The translations under genes and the position numbers were made by a program. A model generated the notes under the pieces. That model did no database searches, was not told where the DNA came from, and saw only the letters and a list, made by a program, of their open reading frames with translations. Positions 5,045-61,411 of a stretch of 64,000 nt of DNA are shown here, one piece after another. The DNA is from a virus. Positions within the stretch are counted from its first letter, which is position 1. Each line of letters opens with the position of its first letter. The DNA is taken from the IMG/VR virus record IMGVR_UViG_3300039191_000223, positions 38,700 through 102,699 of that record; one strand, given 5' to 3'.

Positions 5045-5248
5045 TCATCCGTTTTTGCCCATCATTAACCAAAAATCTTCGCCTTCTCTAAACTTAACAG
5101 CATAATCAGTCTGGACTGATTCTGCCATTGCGTAATCGTAGATAGTACCATCATTCACAAGCCCTTGTAGGATCATGAGTCCTTTTTCTACTTCCTCAAA
5201 TATAATTGCGTCTCTCACTGCGTCAAATTTTTCAGGTATTATTTTCAT
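5045..5248 (-). CDS. hypothetical protein
   Basis: ATGA overlap with the upstream gene. Confidence 0.6.
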   Translation of the reverse strand: MKIIPEKFDAVRDAIIFEEVEKGLMILQGLVNDGTIYDYAMAESVQTDYAVKFREGEDFWLMMGKNG

Positions 5249-5922
5249 AATAGATTCATTCCACCTTTCATTATTTTTGTTGCTTTCGCAGTCTTACCTG
5301 TTTGATGGTCAATTACTTGATCATCCTGAAAGCGATATGTTCTTATTTTGTCACCACGCATACCAGAGCCCCGTTGTTCCCTAGTTATTTGTGATGTTTG
5401 TTTAGACTGGTCATTATATAACATTTCGCTAATCTGTGTCAATAGACTTTGCTTGGCCTCAGCATAATTGTTTTTACGGTTCCTACCTTGACGAGCTTCA
5501 CAAAGTCCAGTGGGCGTGTGGGTGAGGCGACAAGAGTTCTGCTTTTTATTTCTATGTTGCCCACCTTTACCGGTTCCTGAAAACCACTCAACGTGGAAGT
5601 CTTTATCATCGAGGGATAGATAAGCATCGTTTACTGATAACTGATTGGGGTCAACAACGGATACTGTAACCGTAGAAGTGTGGACTCTACCACGTTTCTC
5701 AGTTGGAGGGATTCGTTGTATTCTGTGCCCACCGGCTTCATTATCAAGGCCACGTAGGTCTTTACCAGTGATGTCGAGTTGTGTAAAGCTTGGATGAACT
5801 TTAACGTCACACTTTCAACCGTAGGTAGTTGATAGGCGGGAGTATGCTTCAGCTAGATCGTTGACAAATAGTTTGGAATCGTTACCACCCTCTGCCGGGT
5901 GAATTTCTAGAATGCGTTTCAT
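5245..5922 (-). CDS. class I peptide chain release factor, RF1-like, lacking domain 1, with in-frame TGA at codon 36
   Basis: One frame: MKRILEIHPAEGGNDSKLF...TTYG*KCDV...EAGGHRIQRIPPTEKRGRVHTSTVTV...GKGGQHRNK...KIRTYRFQDDQV; AGGA RBS; TGA at 5815-5817; missed by the ORF track. Confidence 0.9.
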
Positions 5923-6246
5923 TTTACTTTCCTCTAGTATTAATGTTATTTATCCCATTGCCACGGTTTGCCGGGTTTACATAAAATAATATAATCACAT
6001 ACCTTAGTTATTTCGTTGAAGTAATAGTATGCAGGGTCGTATACCCAGCCCCCACGACTTACTGTTATGTGTGGTACCTCTTTGCTACTCCATGTGCCGT
6101 GTTCATATTTCCCGAGCCACCATTTAAGACTGCTTCGAGGGCATTCCAACAATACCAAACTATAAAACACAATATAAAGATTAGAAAATCCATGGTGTTC
6201 TCCGATTAAAACGGATGCCTAGTCTACAAATTTGTATACATAGTGT

Positions 6247-6877: not shown

Positions 6878-8065
6878 CTACTGGTACTCAGTAGCATCGC
6901 CCTTACGAGTCAAGTATGCAGCACTGACACTCTTGAGAATCACACGACCAATCTCATTGTCTCGACGCTCAATCGCGGTTCTGATCACAATACCCTCACG
7001 GATATGCGCCTCTTTTCCTGACAGCGTTTCCTTACCATCGGTGTATTCCTGCATCACCTCTACCGAAAACGGACCACTGTAAAGAACAGGCATGTACTCA
7101 ACCGCATAGCCACCGTATTTAATCTCGTCACCAATGCCATCGTCCGATTCATGGAGTCTATTCTCAAACCATTCTAGGGCATCAAGTACTTCATCGGAGT
7201 TAAGGTAACGGCCCGTCTCACCATTGCCATTAGGATTGCCCACGTAAATGTCAAACACCCTAAACACCGGTTCCGTAGAGCCATAGTGCAAATCCTGCAC
7301 ACCTTTACCGAAAATCTCACCAAGAACAAAGATGCTATCGGTATCCAGTAGGTGAGTAAGCTCATCGACAAGAGCTTGACCAACGTCATTGAACATCTTC
7401 ACATACAGGTTGGAAGCATTCATCGGGTTAAGCTTAAATGCTAGACCCTGCTTGCCAAGACCTTTCGAGTTCACAATGTAAGTCTGGTCATAGATGCCCA
7501 TGGACACAAAGGTCCCGTGCGCCTTCTCCGTGAAGATAACTTCCTCCCCATCCTGAATCACATCCGGGTTGTTTTTCCAATTCTCAATATCGAATCGGAG
7601 AGTCTTGCCACTAGCATTCCAAACCTGCCCTGCCATATGCACCGGAATCGGCGGCTCGTACTTTACGATGCGAAGGTAGTGAGTTACAACAGCACCTTCA
7701 GGCACATAAAGATCAGTAGGACCCTCATCAGGATCGATGAAATGCATGTCATACCATTCGGAGCCATCAGTCGTCTCGCACTTCTTCAAGGGGTAAATCA
7801 GACCTTGAGACAGCACACCGCGAAGCTTGATAGCCTTCACACGGTCACTGTTTTTACCAGCAAGCCTACCTTCCAGCCCAAGCTCTTTAACAAGCCACTG
7901 GGGCAACACAGCCTGTTCAGGAATATAAACGGCAAGGTCGCCCGTCTGGAACTGTCCCTTACGCACGATAGAACGATATCCACCAACGACAGCGAGTTCG
8001 AGAGCATCAGCATTCGGATGCTCTTCGATGGTTAGTCTAACTACTTTGACGTTAAATTCTGACAT
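6878..8065 (-). CDS. RNA ligase, DRB0094 family
   Basis: N-terminal HPNADALE OB-like module, KLRGVLSQGL, EKAHGT, GEIFG, REGIVI, ILKSVS. Confidence 0.9.
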   Translation of the reverse strand: MSEFNVKVVRLTIEEHPNADALELAVVGGYRSIVRKGQFQTGDLAVYIPEQAVLPQWLVKELGLEGRLAGKNSDRVKAIKLRGVLSQGLIYPLKKCETTDGSEWYDMHFIDPDEGPTDLYVPEGAVVTHYLRIVKYEPPIPVHMAGQVWNASGKTLRFDIENWKNNPDVIQDGEEVIFTEKAHGTFVSMGIYDQTYIVNSKGLGKQGLAFKLNPMNASNLYVKMFNDVGQALVDELTHLLDTDSIFVLGEIFGKGVQDLHYGSTEPVFRVFDIYVGNPNGNGETGRYLNSDEVLDALEWFENRLHESDDGIGDEIKYGGYAVEYMPVLYSGPFSVEVMQEYTDGKETLSGKEAHIREGIVIRTAIERRDNEIGRVILKSVSAAYLTRKGDATEYQ

Positions 8066-8778: not shown

Positions 8779-9444
8779 TCAATTTCGTTGAAGGCGCAAC
8801 ATATTTCGCTCGCCCCCAGACCACATCCAATGCTGGTCAGTCTGTACATGGCCTTTACGCACAAACTTAGCTATACTTTGTTGGAAGTCCTTAAGTTGAA
8901 AGCTTCCAGCTGGACGAATAACGTAGCCCTCAACAGTCTTTTGCATATCATCAGTATACAAAGCCTTGATCGCTTCCTCATCATACACGCCACGATAAAG
9001 AACCGGCACATGATCCATATGATACTGCTCACCTGTTTTGATATGCCACTGTGTATTATTGCAGCGCTCAACGGTATCATCCCACGACAATGCAGTGTCA
9101 CCTTCCCACCACGAAAAGGCAAGAAAATAAGATGGTAATTGCGTGTAGATAATAGAATGCACAGCGAACATATTTTCACCACAGATTCGTTCATCATCTT
9201 TCAGTTTGAAGGAGACAGAACCCCACAGGTTTTTGACCCATTCACGAGACCAGTGGTATCCACTATTGACAGATCGAGCATGGATATGATCCCGATACAT
9301 GGTGGTGCACTCCCCATCCATTTTCTCGGTAACAACAACTTCCATGCCCGCAAAGGCTGTAGTCGTATCGAGAATGATATCGTCTTCATCTGCACCCGGA
9401 GACCAAGGCAAATGTGGGGTGCGGGGATATTTAACATACGTCAT
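8779..9444 (-). CDS. RNA ligase family protein
   Basis: KYPRTPHLPWS, TEKMDG, CGEN, EGYVIR, AKFVR motifs. Confidence 0.88.
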   Translation of the reverse strand: MTYVKYPRTPHLPWSPGADEDDIILDTTTAFAGMEVVVTEKMDGECTTMYRDHIHARSVNSGYHWSREWVKNLWGSVSFKLKDDERICGENMFAVHSIIYTQLPSYFLAFSWWEGDTALSWDDTVERCNNTQWHIKTGEQYHMDHVPVLYRGVYDEEAIKALYTDDMQKTVEGYVIRPAGSFQLKDFQQSIAKFVRKGHVQTDQHWMWSGGERNMLRLQRN

Positions 9445-11129: not shown

Positions 11130-12410
11130 TTATCTAAATCGTTTGGAACCATGGACCCAAATAACTAAGGCCCATCGTTCACCTTCTTGCATTGGTGTTA
11201 CTTTATGTAGACAATAACTTGGGAACAGTGCCAAAGCACCCCGATCCCGCGAAGCATTTAGCATTTCACCGTTGCTATTGACCATCAAATCACCACCAGT
11301 ATATTGATCAGGTGCGGTTAGTTGCACCGACACACTAATTTTCCGCGTAGAACTTGTCATGTTTCCCACGTCAACATGCCACTCATAGTGGCCGGGGTCT
11401 TCGCCAGAATCGTAATGTAGAAGCTGGAGTTCATGCGTAATCCCCATGATTTCATAATCAAAGTGTTCCGCGTTTACAATACTCACAATACGCGCTAGCT
11501 TATCAAATGCCCAACGTGTATCATCGTTCATTGGAATTTGATATAAGTCTACATTGCGAATATCTTTCTTAATTAGACCATCAGCACCAGCACCTATACT
11601 GCCTTCTTCCGCGTACATGGATGATGCAAACCCAATGATCCGTTCACACTCTTCTGGGGTAAACGCAAGGTTTGGATGTGTTGTAGACGTAATACTAGCT
11701 AAACCGGGAATCTGTAGGTCCCAACTTGGAATCATTACACCGTTATAAATCGGGAATACTCCTTGTCGCGATTGTTTTACGTTACCAGTGTCAGGACTTT
11801 GCTGCCCTACAGTTTGGTTTTGATTTTCTGCCTTAGTGTCGGCACCCAGCCCAAGCTCAGGTCTGCCGTCAAATTTATTATCTTTGTGTGGTCCGTTGGC
11901 GTCTACGAAATGAAAAAATACTTGGCACTGCCATTCACCTTTAAATTCTGGACGCCAATGTACAAGGTCTTCTCCACGGTATAGCAAAAAGTCACCAATC
12001 TTAAGATCAACACGTTTCCCGCGTTCATCGTTAGGGTCAGCCGCTAGATAAATTGGCCAGACATTCATGCCATCAAATCCCAGCGTTAGTGTACCGCTAA
12101 TCTCACATGATGGGCGATCAGTATGTCGCGATAGCACTTCACCCGTTCGATAGATACGCGCATAGGTATATGTTGGGGTCAACTCTTTTCCAATGTGCTG
12201 TCCAATTGGCTCAGCAAGTTTTTCTAACAATCCATCAAACACTGGATCACCATAAATCGCTTCCGACTTAGGACACTGGTCATCCTTCACCATTTTACCA
12301 TCTTCACACAATTGGAACATACGCTTTGTTAGATTTTCACATAAATCTTTGGATAGCACATCATGCAACAGAACATATGAATTATTCTCAAAATATTCTC
12401 TGGGCGTCAT
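11130..12410 (-). CDS. tandem 2OG-Fe(II) oxygenase (two domains)
   Basis: HTD...HWR and HVD...HKV...R motifs joined by a Q-rich linker. Confidence 0.88.
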   Translation of the reverse strand: MTPREYFENNSYVLLHDVLSKDLCENLTKRMFQLCEDGKMVKDDQCPKSEAIYGDPVFDGLLEKLAEPIGQHIGKELTPTYTYARIYRTGEVLSRHTDRPSCEISGTLTLGFDGMNVWPIYLAADPNDERGKRVDLKIGDFLLYRGEDLVHWRPEFKGEWQCQVFFHFVDANGPHKDNKFDGRPELGLGADTKAENQNQTVGQQSPDTGNVKQSRQGVFPIYNGVMIPSWDLQIPGLASITSTTHPNLAFTPEECERIIGFASSMYAEEGSIGAGADGLIKKDIRNVDLYQIPMNDDTRWAFDKLARIVSIVNAEHFDYEIMGITHELQLLHYDSGEDPGHYEWHVDVGNMTSSTRKISVSVQLTAPDQYTGGDLMVNSNGEMLNASRDRGALALFPSYCLHKVTPMQEGERWALVIWVHGSKRFR

Positions 12411-13237
12411 GTCAATACCTCTGGATAAAACATTTCATAATACGGTAGGTTGCGTTCTATAATTTGCTTGTGGAATGCAGGATCGCTTACGCGCTTTTCT
12501 TTCTTCTTTGTCAGCAGCGAGGGCGATACCTTATGGCTAGTCCGCTCTCGGAAATAGACGGCATCGTGTTCATAGATTTCAGATTGTTGAATATTGTCAA
12601 AATCGTGTTCGAATTTTTCTTCACCTAAGAACGAGTATACCCTATTTAACTCTTTGAACGGATCGACAATAAGGTCTTCATATCGAATGAAAATAACGTC
12701 ACGGGTCTGCTTGCGTGCAGCCTCTAGTACACGAGGAAGCTCATAGGTGAACGCCCCCGACAAAGGGTTTCCCGTTTCGAAATAATAGCGATATCGTTCT
12801 TGATCTGTCATACCCGGAAGTAACCCATGAGTTTTATCAAAGGTATGCATGATTTTTGTTTTTGCATTTACACGATCAAAGGATTCGACAATATCTCGTA
12901 GATCACGAATCATAGCAATGTATTTACCTTCGGGGAACAGGTGGTAATAGCCCGACCAATTTCTAGACTTAGAAATGACCACTGGCTTATCAGTAAGTGC
13001 ATCAAACCAACCATGGACCCCGGCAATCGCAAATCCGTGCAATGCTTCGTCAGCCCGCTCTATAGGCATAGCCATGAATTCTTCACGACCCCTAGTGTTA
13101 ATTGCGACTTGATTTAGGATGTTAGGAACAGGACACGTTCCGGTTGTAAAGATACGATGATTTTGCTGAAGGACGTTCATTAAAACTGTAGAGCCTGAAC
13201 GAGGGAGTCCCCCACAGAAGTGCAATTGTTTTGGCAT
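12407..13237 (-). CDS. sulfotransferase family protein
   Basis: GLPRSGST, IRDLRDIVES, RYEDL. Confidence 0.88.
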   Translation of the reverse strand: MPKQLHFCGGLPRSGSTVLMNVLQQNHRIFTTGTCPVPNILNQVAINTRGREEFMAMPIERADEALHGFAIAGVHGWFDALTDKPVVISKSRNWSGYYHLFPEGKYIAMIRDLRDIVESFDRVNAKTKIMHTFDKTHGLLPGMTDQERYRYYFETGNPLSGAFTYELPRVLEAARKQTRDVIFIRYEDLIVDPFKELNRVYSFLGEEKFEHDFDNIQQSEIYEHDAVYFRERTSHKVSPSLLTKKKEKRVSDPAFHKQIIERNLPYYEMFYPEVLT

Positions 13238-26464: not shown

Positions 26465-26539
26465 TGGCAGGGGTGCAGGGACTCGAACCCCGATTTGCAG
26501 TTTTGGAGACTGCTGCTCTGCCAATTGAACTACACCCCT
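26465..26539 (-). tRNA. tRNA-Trp(CCA)
   Basis: Canonical cloverleaf, loop CTCCAAA. Confidence 0.95.
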
Positions 26540-26656: not shown

Positions 26657-26728
26657 TGGCATGCACACACGGAATCGAACCGCGCTACTGAAGTTTGGAA
26701 CCTCTGTTGCTCCCAGAGCCACACCCAT
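26657..26728 (-). tRNA. atypical tRNA-Trp(CCA)
   Basis: Loop TTCCAAA, 3-nt D loop, weak acceptor stem, CCA. Confidence 0.6.
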
Positions 26729-38689: not shown

Positions 38690-38768
38690 TGGTCGGGGAA
38701 GCTGGAATCGAACCAGCGGTGTCAGTTTTACAGAGTTGTTACTTCTCTCTATAACTATATCTTCACCG
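38690..38768 (-). ncRNA. tRNA 3'-half-like element
   Basis: GCTGG-TTCGATT-CCAGC then TTCCCCGACCA; 5' part overlaps a TTGACA-17-TATAGT promoter (38754-38782). Confidence 0.45.
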
Positions 38769-40297: not shown

Positions 40298-40372
40298 TGG
40301 GGTGCCTAGATGGATTTGAACCATCGACCTCCCTCGCGCAAGGGTGCTCTGCCAGACTGAGCTATAGTCACC
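40298..40372 (-). ncRNA. tRNA-His-like RNA lacking an anticodon loop
   Basis: G-1/C73 His-type acceptor, canonical D and T arms, CCCTT-GCGC-GAGGG. Confidence 0.75.
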
Positions 40373-46142: not shown

Positions 46143-46218
46143 TGGTGACTCGGGTGGGACTCGAACCCACAACCAGCGATATTAGAAGTCGCGGCTCTGC
46201 CCCTTGAGCTACCGAGTC
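46143..46218 (-). tRNA. tRNA with CTA anticodon (putative amber suppressor; alternative reading Arg TCT)
   Basis: 76-nt canonical spacing puts TTCTAAT at 32-38; C31:A39 mismatch. Confidence 0.7.
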
Positions 46219-59725: not shown

Positions 59726-61411
59726 TTATGACACTACAGTGAATGCATCTTTCCACCACTGTGGTGCGTTCTTTTTATACTTGTTCCATAGGAATCCGAA
59801 GGACTCGTCGAGGATGTAAGTGTTACCCCAATCCTCTGGAGAACGCACTACCCTACCGCCGCCTTGAATGATAGAAATCATGGCCTGCCGCATGTACCAT
59901 TCTTCGGACAAGTCTTTACGCCGCTTCACCCATTCGTCGCCCAGAAAGGGGAATGGTACTTTAACAAAGATAGCAAAACGAGCAGTGTCGTCCATTAGGT
60001 CCAGACCTTCGGTGCATGAAGGTGATACCAGAACCATGGGCTCATTACCTTCATTCTCCGTAAACTCTTCAATGCACTCGTCTCTGCTAGAATTCTCATC
60101 CTGATTGTGTGTGATAACCCGCTGTTTGATCTTGCTCTCAAGTTGGTCTACAAGCCATGAAGAAACTTGAAAACTTCCGGTATGAACGATGCCAGATTCT
60201 CCTTCATGAGCATTACACAGATCGACAACGCGCTTAAGCATCTTGTCACGGTCCTTCGTGCGCTCCGGCTTGTGCCACCCATACGACATTTTAGCGGTCG
60301 GCATGAAGTATACTGGGCGATTGGATGGTGCAAACTCTGATGGCATATCAACCACTGCAATCTGATCCTCTGGAATACCAAGATCACGAGCATAACTGTT
60401 GAAGTCCAGAATCGTGGACGACATGAACAGGAATCTATCAGCCTTCGGCTTTAGGATTTGATTGAACAGATTTGCACCATAAATTTCCTTGAACTCAAAC
60501 GCGGTCTTATCGACCATAAGCACATAGTACTTCTCCAGAACGTCGAAGGATATTTCAGCCAATCGCTTAGTTATAGCACGGTAACGTTTGAACTCTTTGT
60601 ATTCCTTCTTGGTTCTAATCTCAGAAGGTAGTAGAGATGCTTTTGTCTGAAATTCATACTTACTATCAATACCTTTCACGCTCTTTTCTAGCTCGAAATA
60701 CTTACTGTCCACGGCAGGAAAATATTGATCCACAATGAACTGGTGTGCCTCCTTCAAGTTACGTGGCTTGAAGAAACTAGCACCCACTTTCTCACATCGA
60801 CCTTTACTGACAGATACCGCACGATGACTGACTAGATTGTTCTCTAGCGTATGGCACTCATCGAAGACCATGAGGTCTCTTACAGGGAAGTCAGTAGTAT
60901 TCCCCGGAAAAAGTTCAGAATACAGCAGAGCGAGCTTGTAGTTAAGCACAACGTGTGGTGTGGTGCGTATCGACGCAAATGCTTGTTTGGCGGGGCATGA
61001 AACGCACTTAGGCTTGATATCGTCACCAATATCACAGTTCAATCCAAGCTTGGTTGTGCAGAAGTAGTTAGCCTTACCGTAGACCGAAACCAATTCACCG
61101 TTAGTAAAGCTTTCTTCGTACTGTCGTTGAAGGATTCGTTGTGGAGTCAGAATGTAGGAAGTGCCCAATGGGCCATGTCCAAGAAAGCTGGAATACGTAA
61201 CCGCAATTGGCGACTTACCACCACCGACAGGGATTTGACAAAAGATGTATTTTGCATCAGCTGGTAGATTAGCCATCCAATCAAGAACAAACTTCTGGCT
61301 TTCACGCGGCTGATAATCCGGCATTGCCCAGTGGTCCCAAATATTCCTCTTGGACAAGATGGGCCTATTACCTGTCGGTTCTTCAAAATCTACCATATTG
61401 CTCTCTGTCAT
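59726..61411 (-). CDS. DinG/XPD-like helicase
   Basis: PVGGGKS, DECH, MSST, QGGGRVVR. Confidence 0.92.
   Translation of the reverse strand: MTESNMVDFEEPTGNRPILSKRNIWDHWAMPDYQPRESQKFVLDWMANLPADAKYIFCQIPVGGGKSPIAVTYSSFLGHGPLGTSYILTPQRILQRQYEESFTNGELVSVYGKANYFCTTKLGLNCDIGDDIKPKCVSCPAKQAFASIRTTPHVVLNYKLALLYSELFPGNTTDFPVRDLMVFDECHTLENNLVSHRAVSVSKGRCEKVGASFFKPRNLKEAHQFIVDQYFPAVDSKYFELEKSVKGIDSKYEFQTKASLLPSEIRTKKEYKEFKRYRAITKRLAEISFDVLEKYYVLMVDKTAFEFKEIYGANLFNQILKPKADRFLFMSSTILDFNSYARDLGIPEDQIAVVDMPSEFAPSNRPVYFMPTAKMSYGWHKPERTKDRDKMLKRVVDLCNAHEGESGIVHTGSFQVSSWLVDQLESKIKQRVITHNQDENSSRDECIEEFTENEGNEPMVLVSPSCTEGLDLMDDTARFAIFVKVPFPFLGDEWVKRRKDLSEEWYMRQAMISIIQGGGRVVRSPEDWGNTYILDESFGFLWNKYKKNAPQWWKDAFTVVS

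Follow-up and report, generated by a model that had tools for sequence, protein, structure and literature searches.

Release factor genes under recoding control have one textbook case, prfB, which encodes release factor 2 (RF2). In prfB, a Shine-Dalgarno (SD)-like sequence precedes CUU UGA C at about codon 26, a +1 shift carries ribosomes past the early in-frame UGA and sets the amount of factor made, and this cassette responds to release-factor level or activity. A leaky UGA of a different kind yields the A1 protein of phage Q-beta, in which tRNA-Trp reads the stop in the bacterial host, a 3' A is favourable and the longer product is essential. For the RF1 family such recoding is said to be absent (reviewer comment, PMC1586002). 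Among viruses, the class I release factor of Mimivirus and Megavirus has internal stops that are passed by read-through and frameshifting, which its authors interpreted as autoregulation (PMC3521657). Phage genes for RF1 and RF2, along with transfer-messenger RNAs (tmRNAs), are already known (PMC7162821; 10.1101/2021.08.26.457843). Here we describe a gene for a short release factor of the RF1 type that has TGA in frame at codon 36 and is located in a stretch of 64,000 nucleotides (the window), the 3'-terminal 64 kb of a phage record of 102.7 kb in IMG/VR (IMGVR_UViG_3300039191_000223, positions 38,700 to 102,699). The conservation of this early TGA in ca. 170 homologs is far beyond chance, and the interruption looks like a built-in control switch, not damage. 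A full-text literature search retrieved no description of a UGA-gated short RF1 device.

The locus resembles each of the known systems in part. With prfB it shares a class I factor gene and an early in-frame UGA, bypass of which sets the amount of product in prfB. However, the bypass there is a +1 shift, whereas the window and ca. 170 phage homologs have the arrangement of zero-frame read-through. Besides, the prfB product reads its own gate, while feedback by an RF1-type (PxT) phage factor would have to run through the other factor. The Mimivirus/Megavirus gene likewise encodes a viral termination factor recoded at internal stops, but it is an eRF1 homolog, i.e., of eukaryotic/archaeal type, with two recoding events, and here we find a bacterial RF1 type with a single UGA. 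The leaky UGA followed by A is common to Q-beta A1, in which read-through extends a complete coat protein at its C terminus; the stop described here interrupts one folded domain, and its truncated product is probably of no use. In the Jade phages, a phage RF1 also stands alongside suppressor tRNAs, in a module with tRNA(UCA) and TrpRS (10.1101/2021.08.26.457843), but there the RF1 genes follow the standard code and take part in switching TGA to Trp throughout the genome. In our case the genome uses the standard code, the RF1 gene alone is interrupted and the suppressor is usually an amber one (CUA), matching a codon that RF1 itself reads. Finally, PrfH (RFH) is similar in size (ca. 200-230 residues), in the lack of domain 1 and in the retention of GGQ, but the window factor falls below the cut-off of the PrfH model, has RF1 reading residues and an in-frame UGA, and is not accompanied by RtcB.

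If both of its TGA codons are read, the gene has 227 sense codons and ends with TAA at 5239-5241 (Table 1). The frame runs from MKRILEIHPAEGGNDSKLF…TTYG through TGA36 to KCDV…RIPPTEKRGRVHTS…GTGKGGQHRN…MNLL, followed by TGA226, AAA and TAA. The second TGA overlaps the ATG of the next open reading frame (ORF) as ATGA. It aligns with a Trp codon that is TGG in 154 homologs, and AAA TAA comes next; the real end of the family is therefore ...LLWK-TAA, and the window protein would either lack its last two residues or regain them via a second read-through. The preliminary description of this DNA had recognized a 226-codon frame with a ribosome binding site, PxT and GGQ and without domain 1, all of which holds, but its end at 5245-5247 has to be moved to the TAA.

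Table 1. Positions of the release factor gene, its parts and the relevant tRNA genes in the window
Feature	Position	Strand	Evidence
Short RF1-type release factor gene	5239..5922	-	Translation, Pfam, NCBIfam, PDB phmmer, AlphaFold (AF2) model
Shine-Dalgarno GAGG	5931..5934	-	8 nt 5' of the ATG at 5922-5920, read from the sequence
In-frame TGA, codon 36 (GGT TGA AAG), the putative gate	5815..5817	-	Alignment to RF1 Trp, conservation, context
Codons 1-35, with the AEGG(x)DS tip of helix alpha-5	5818..5922	-	Invariant columns, dN/dS
PPT (PxT "tripeptide anticodon," RF1 type), codons 72-74, inside QRIPPTEKRGRVHTS	5701..5709	-	Alignment to RF1 QRVPATESQGRIHTS; family-invariant
GGQ peptidyl-tRNA hydrolysis motif, codons 120-122	5557..5565	-	Translation, alignment; G120 and G121 invariant
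Second TGA, codon 226	5245..5247	-	Alignment to the TGG (Trp) of homologs
tRNA-Trp(CCA), likely near-cognate UGA reader	26465..26539	-	ARAGORN
Second, atypical 72-nt tRNA-Trp(CCA), mismatched stems	26657..26728	-	ARAGORN
tRNA(CUA), amber suppressor type; does not read UGA	46143..46218	-	ARAGORN

The product is an RF1-type factor consisting of domains 2-4 only. Both PCRF (PF03462, 72 bits) and RF-1 (PF00472, 64 bits) were found above the Pfam cut-offs, and since the PCRF match begins at position 103 of the model (103-194 of 194), domain 1 is missing. Among NCBIfam models RF1 ranked first, with 168.7 bits over positions 107-332 of 347, a score below the cut-off of 400 for the full-length RF1 equivalog, and RF2 came second (102 bits). 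Solved structures gave the same order (PDB phmmer), with 125 bits for RF1 chains and at most 71 for RF2 chains. All the codon-reading residues of RF1 are present (Q, PxT and (I/V)HT) instead of those of RF2 (V, SPF and RHT), in agreement with the earlier proposal that PxT marks the RF1 type. In the HMMER alignment against RF1 chains, TGA36 falls on the Trp of Thermotoga maritima KGWN and Escherichia coli RRWR, as had also been suggested. The AF2 model, built from 86 homologs, reached a pLDDT of 92.1, and in Foldseek its TM score was 0.86 to ribosome-bound Thermus thermophilus RF1 and 0.85 to E. coli RF1. Within the AEGG(x)DS tip, G12 and G13 are invariant across the family; the two Gly residues of the helix alpha-5 tip are needed for stop-codon reading by the factor, and neither codon recognition nor hydrolysis requires domain 1 (PMC1586002). 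The predicted specificity is thus UAA/UAG, and UGA would fall to the RF2 of the host. Each genome searched contained one gene with an RF domain, and neither a phage RF2 nor SmpB was detected in any of them. The possibility that a split domain 1 is encoded by the upstream ORF (5946-6170) was discarded, as this ORF has no Pfam match and no conservation.

Scans of viral, metagenomic and genomic collections provided several hundred relatives (more than 450 viral and 440 metagenomic), of which 80 per scan were analyzed. These homologs, mostly from phages of 340-520 kb, are 46-58% identical to the window protein. Among the first 163 loci, the codon aligned to 36 was TGA in 160 and TGG in 2 (162 homologs counted), while other Trp codons are ordinary ones: Trp113 is TGG in 163 of 163 and Trp226 in 154. 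When the set was extended to 174 distinct sequences (ca. 170 homologs), a single early TGA was present in each full-length sequence, in the zero frame without exception. Four of them (L288, L135, L152 and L265) have TGG at codon 36 and the TGA shifted to codon 38 or 40, the shifted-stop variants reading GWA-stop, GWTST-stop, DWNFD-stop and GWQFR-stop. Five complete genomes with terminal repeats (342-524 kb) carry one copy of the gene each, with one TGA. Purifying selection acts on both sides: in the 104 pairs not saturated at synonymous sites, the ratio of nonsynonymous to synonymous rates (dN/dS) is ca. 0.08 over codons 1-35 and ca. 0.10 past the stop. Most pairs are saturated at these sites (pS, ca. 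0.7). The depth of the comparison is considerable, as the tree of 140 sequences totals 37.7 substitutions per site. Therefore, the test set in the preliminary description, a conserved stop with both flanks under purifying selection, came out in its favour, the stop being at codon 36 or 2-4 codons away in every full-length homolog. The first ATG, GTG or TTG in frame after TGA36 is codon 161; since this lies beyond both PxT and GGQ, re-initiation cannot yield a working factor, and no conserved start codon exists downstream that would allow it. Altogether, the gene shows the features by which programmed read-through is recognized, i.e., the stop is conserved, the same frame is under purifying selection downstream of it and no restart codon follows, and full-length protein would arise only when termination at the UGA fails, as originally proposed.

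Some more distant or unusually placed copies should be mentioned. The nearest proteins in phage databases are release factors of huge phages of 635-735 kb (L165-L168; LR745206, LR756504, LR756501 and LR756502), which are 35-38% identical, start at domain 2 and have Phe or Leu at the Trp site. One or two further stops interrupt the frames of their genes, at positions that are not homologous, and may reflect an alternative code. The in-frame-TGA gene was also found on very large contigs from assemblies of alphaproteobacterial isolates and metagenome-assembled genomes: Jiella sp. LLJ827 contig 4 (L362, 391 kb), a 446-kb contig of Gemmobacter caeni DSM 21823 (L372) and a 2.3-Mb contig of a Kiloniella metagenome-assembled genome (L365). 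They may represent jumbo phages or phage-plasmids of culturable hosts or, in the 2.3-Mb contig, an integrated copy, and may give a clue to the host. Standard gene callers split the gene, overlook it or, on short contigs, apply code 4 to it; many full-length database proteins from contigs of 1-2 kb probably carry the TGA and were probably called in the latter way.

The source of the window is a giant T4-like jumbo phage using the standard code. The 102.7-kb record is ca. 30% complete by CheckV; the window includes a T4-type portal, SbcCD-like genes, a helicase, a C5 methylase and a DNA ligase, and we found no nucleotide-level match to isolated phages. TGA terminates 46 of the 132 called genes in this genome (35%) and is the genuine gene end for 34-53% in six relatives; TGA-ending genes numbered 211 of 395 in G002, 168 of 407 in G001 and 147 of 484 in G003. 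Long ORFs of the window genome stay whole under code 11, and a phage with code 4 or partial TGA recoding was rejected by ORF statistics and stop usage. In a junction scan of four genomes, the release factor gene was alone in having a conserved in-frame stop; an apparent in-frame TAG at position 60352 of G001 was merely two aligned gene ends.

The vicinity of the stop is also strongly biased. In 140 distinct sequences the base following the TGA (+4) is A in 109 (78%), C in 17, G in 14 and T in none, compared with 28% T at the genuine TGA stops of four of these genomes (Fisher P value of 3e-18, uncorrected for phylogeny). In counts that ignore shared ancestry, and with synonymous sites saturated elsewhere, Thr at codon 37 is encoded by ACT in 52 of 60 cases (32% gene-wide), Lys by AAG in 28 of 28 (44%), Ala by GCT in 13 of 14 (25%) and Leu by CTC in 13 of 17 (9%), and Gly at codon 35 is encoded by GGC in 90 of 134 (37%). 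Such a context looks like that of a leaky UGA. The true terminal stop, in turn, is TAA in 143 of 160 genes (89%) versus 51% genome-wide, which suggests a gene expressed under conditions in which UGA is read through.

The best evidence that the phage UGA would be a sensor and not a mere brake is that a prfB cassette occupies the same site in relatives. In 28 homologs from the scan of the genome collection, codons 1 to ca. 37 and the remainder lie in different frames. The junction between them is CTT TGA C/G (22 homologs) or CTT TAG C (6), usually with an SD-like GGAGG or GGGAG 2-3 nt 5' of the CTT. This is the geometry of the prfB +1 cassette, placed at the very site of the phage TGA. Most of these homologs belong to Myxococcota and form one clade (support of 0.945), and some are located on complete chromosomes, such as those of Nannocystis punicea FL3 (L403) and Minicystis rosea DSM 24000 (L377). 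Nannocystis exedens DSM 71 (L399) is also among the Myxococcota with the frameshift (L373-L412). The C-terminal parts score as RF1, not PrfH, and to our knowledge programmed frameshifting has not been described for an RF1-type gene. One of the 28, L364, lies on a 30-kb contig binned with Hahella, and its product is 58% identical to that of the window; its codon 36 is TGG, CTT TAG C stands at codon 41, and it groups with the phage sequences, with weak support. The likeness to prfB is extended by cellular homologs and one homolog of the phage clade, in which the site is occupied by a complete cassette of the prfB type. No +1 cassette is present in the window and the phage clade, where the zero frame continues and codon 35 is GGN.

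As to the tRNA that decodes the UGA, near-cognate reading by Trp-tRNA would be the simplest explanation and would restore the Trp of RF1. The phage provides a tRNA-Trp of its own, and the D-stem of this tRNA (26465-26539) has the wild-type U11-G24 pair, which rules out a suppressor tRNA-Trp of the Hirsh type. The second tRNA-Trp call may correspond to a pseudo-tRNA. We identified 40 tRNA genes, all on the minus strand and spread among small ORFs over 46 kb (131-46218), with no tRNA(UCA) among the 40 tRNAs of this partial (ca. 30%) genome and no tRNA-Gly or tRNA-Tyr in this part of it; the ARAGORN call at 40298-40371 shows a 2-base anomaly in the anticodon loop. Five complete or near-complete relatives (G001, G003, G006, G008 and G010) have one or two tRNA(CUA) and no tRNA(UCA) and have kept the TGA. 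Since five of six relatives thus lack a UGA-reading tRNA, cognate suppression cannot be the general mechanism. The sixth, G002 (57% GC, complete), has two 77-nt tRNA(UCA) genes adjoining its tmRNA. Suppressor-type tRNAs are therefore present in the window and in all six relatives despite the standard code, and the combination of an amber suppressor with a UAG-reading RF1-type factor is the opposite of the pairing in recoded phages. No conserved gene with an in-frame TAG that the tRNA(CUA) might serve was found.

We consider it probable, if far from settled, that programmed read-through of the UGA, probably with Trp, couples the synthesis of this RF1-type factor to the activity of RF2. At codon 36, host RF2 and Trp-tRNA(CCA) would compete: most ribosomes would terminate via RF2 and release a harmless peptide of 35 residues, while a fraction would read the UGA as Trp, finish the factor and stop at the UAA. 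Output would rise when free RF2 is low or Trp-tRNA is high and fall when termination at UGA is efficient. The gate would report on the other factor because an RF1-type product should not read UGA, so that the device would be a prfB-like sensor working by read-through instead of frameshifting. The extra RF1-type factor would take UAA and UAG and leave RF2 free for UGA, closing a homeostatic loop during the heavy translation of infection; such relief is expected because UAA, which ends more than half of the phage genes, is shared by both factors. The sensor of RF2 or ribosome damage envisaged in the preliminary description is in this way supported indirectly in its RF2 part, by analogy with the prfB-type cassette at the same site, while the part concerning ribosome damage is not supported.

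Several points weigh against this reading. Read-through itself, its efficiency, the residue inserted and the dependence on RF2 are steps that we infer, as is the homeostatic purpose of the gate. A PxT-type factor should not read UGA, and the predicted loop is for this reason indirect, unlike that of prfB. The A at +4 and part of the codon 37 bias may come from amino acid preference and shared ancestry. No conserved RNA structure was found 3' of the UGA: RNAalifold gave 0 pairs in 70 sequences, a hand-picked 4-bp stem after the UGA was paired in 77.5% versus 74% in shuffles, and the local fold of the window at the UGA had a z score of -0.29. The two tRNA(UCA) of G002 make cognate suppression possible in some phages. 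Finally, the six relatives with a UAG cassette would report on RF1 or on the factor itself, so that a sensor of RF2 cannot hold for the whole family.

A simpler possibility is that the leaky UGA merely limits a potentially toxic, RF3-independent factor to a few percent of what the mRNA could yield, with no sensing involved, the early stop being favoured because the short peptide is harmless. The conservation data fit this static attenuation equally well; the factor lacks domain 1, and the early position of the stop (codons 36-41) is held even where it moves. Nevertheless, we regard it as unlikely. A weak ribosome binding site or promoter would suffice for that purpose, yet no lineage among ca. 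170 has replaced the stop, and the relatives that did swap it chose solely the prfB-type cassette, a known responder to release factors. The TAA-biased true stop, moreover, suggests tuning for conditions of UGA read-through. Alternatively, a phage tRNA(UCA), or a modified tRNA-Trp or RF2, could open UGA decoding at a given stage of infection, in the manner of the "code-change modules" of recoded phages. The genome of G002, with its two tRNA(UCA) near the tmRNA, and the modules of RF1 and tRNA(UCA) in TGA-recoded Jade phages (10.1101/2021.08.26.457843) would be compatible with such a temporal gate, as would the fact that just ca. 30% of the phage genome is in hand. Still, the tRNA sets of the record and of the five relatives that retain the TGA include no UCA, strong opal suppression would corrupt a third to half of the phage proteins, and no other gene has a conserved in-frame TGA. 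All this leaves the temporal gate with a slim chance.

The preliminary description had also placed the factor close to PrfH, as a rescue factor for damaged ribosomes, working with neighbouring RNA ligases and induced by damage. Certainly, PrfH lacks domain 1 as well, two Rnl-type RNA ligase genes (PF09414) are located at 6878-8065 and 8779-9444, i.e., 1-3.5 kb away, and tmRNA genes accompany the factor in relatives, in G003 directly adjacent to it. However, the PrfH model TIGR03072 gave 36.2 bits against a cut-off of 166.65, covering the GGQ domain alone, compared with the 168.7 bits of RF1, and the RF1 codon-reading residues are intact. The window locus has no RtcB partner and no translationally coupled one upstream (the ORF at 5946-6170 matches nothing in Pfam), and only 6 of 163 related loci have a ligase within 3 kb of the factor. 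Thus, the ligases are real neighbours but the functional link to them was rejected, the synteny not being conserved, and we find a PrfH-like role improbable. Taken alone, the window shows a single interrupted frame that might be due to a sequencing error, a recent nonsense mutation, a code with TGA as Trp, or selenocysteine. Artefact or decay of this sort is hardly credible. The same TGA recurs in hundreds of independent assemblies, dN/dS is ca. 0.1 on either side, the remaining Trp codons are TGG, and many genes genuinely end with TGA; these comparative data exclude error, pseudogene and alternative code. Selenocysteine was discarded because RF1 and the variants with a moved stop have Trp, not Cys, at the site, there is no hairpin, and the tRNA(UCA) genes of G002, of 77 nt, are not of the Sec type.

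In a wider frame, it is possible rather than probable that the window gene represents an unrecognized class of RF1-type factors without domain 1, spread over hundreds of environmental jumbo phages and the chromosomes of Myxococcota. Its single early stop would be a gate operated interchangeably by UGA read-through or by CUU-UGA or CUU-UAG +1 frameshifting. The phage form would act as a cross-factor homeostat, in which shortage of RF2 induces an RF1-type helper, and would be the first case of recoding control in the RF1 family. An RF1-type gene in hundreds of phage genomes with three interchangeable gates at one site would be a natural experiment on the mutual replacement of read-through and frameshifting. 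It would also mean that phages may tune the termination capacity of the host, beyond importing factors. On the practical side, the site provides a compact, strongly selected bacterial context for UGA read-through and a potential reporter of RF2 activity.

The conserved setting of the factor gene is a phage tRNA island: a tRNA or tmRNA gene is found within 3 kb of it in 104 of the 163 related loci, and a tmRNA in 12. In the complete 363-kb relative G003 (G003:C1:160426-161598, L216), the tmRNA gene is directly downstream and overlaps the end of the factor gene. All six complete or near-complete relatives have a tmRNA, and none of them SmpB. Upstream of the cluster of RNA ligase and guanylate kinase genes in the window, a protein with a 2OG-Fe(II) oxygenase domain (426 aa) adjoins one of the sulfotransferase family (276 aa; 11130-13237, minus strand), an unusual cargo for a T4-like phage. 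The coding region of the release factor contains a perfect sigma-70 consensus (TTGACA, 18 nt, TATAAT; 12/12) at 5413-5442 on the minus strand, directed toward the small ORFs downstream (5045-5248 and beyond).

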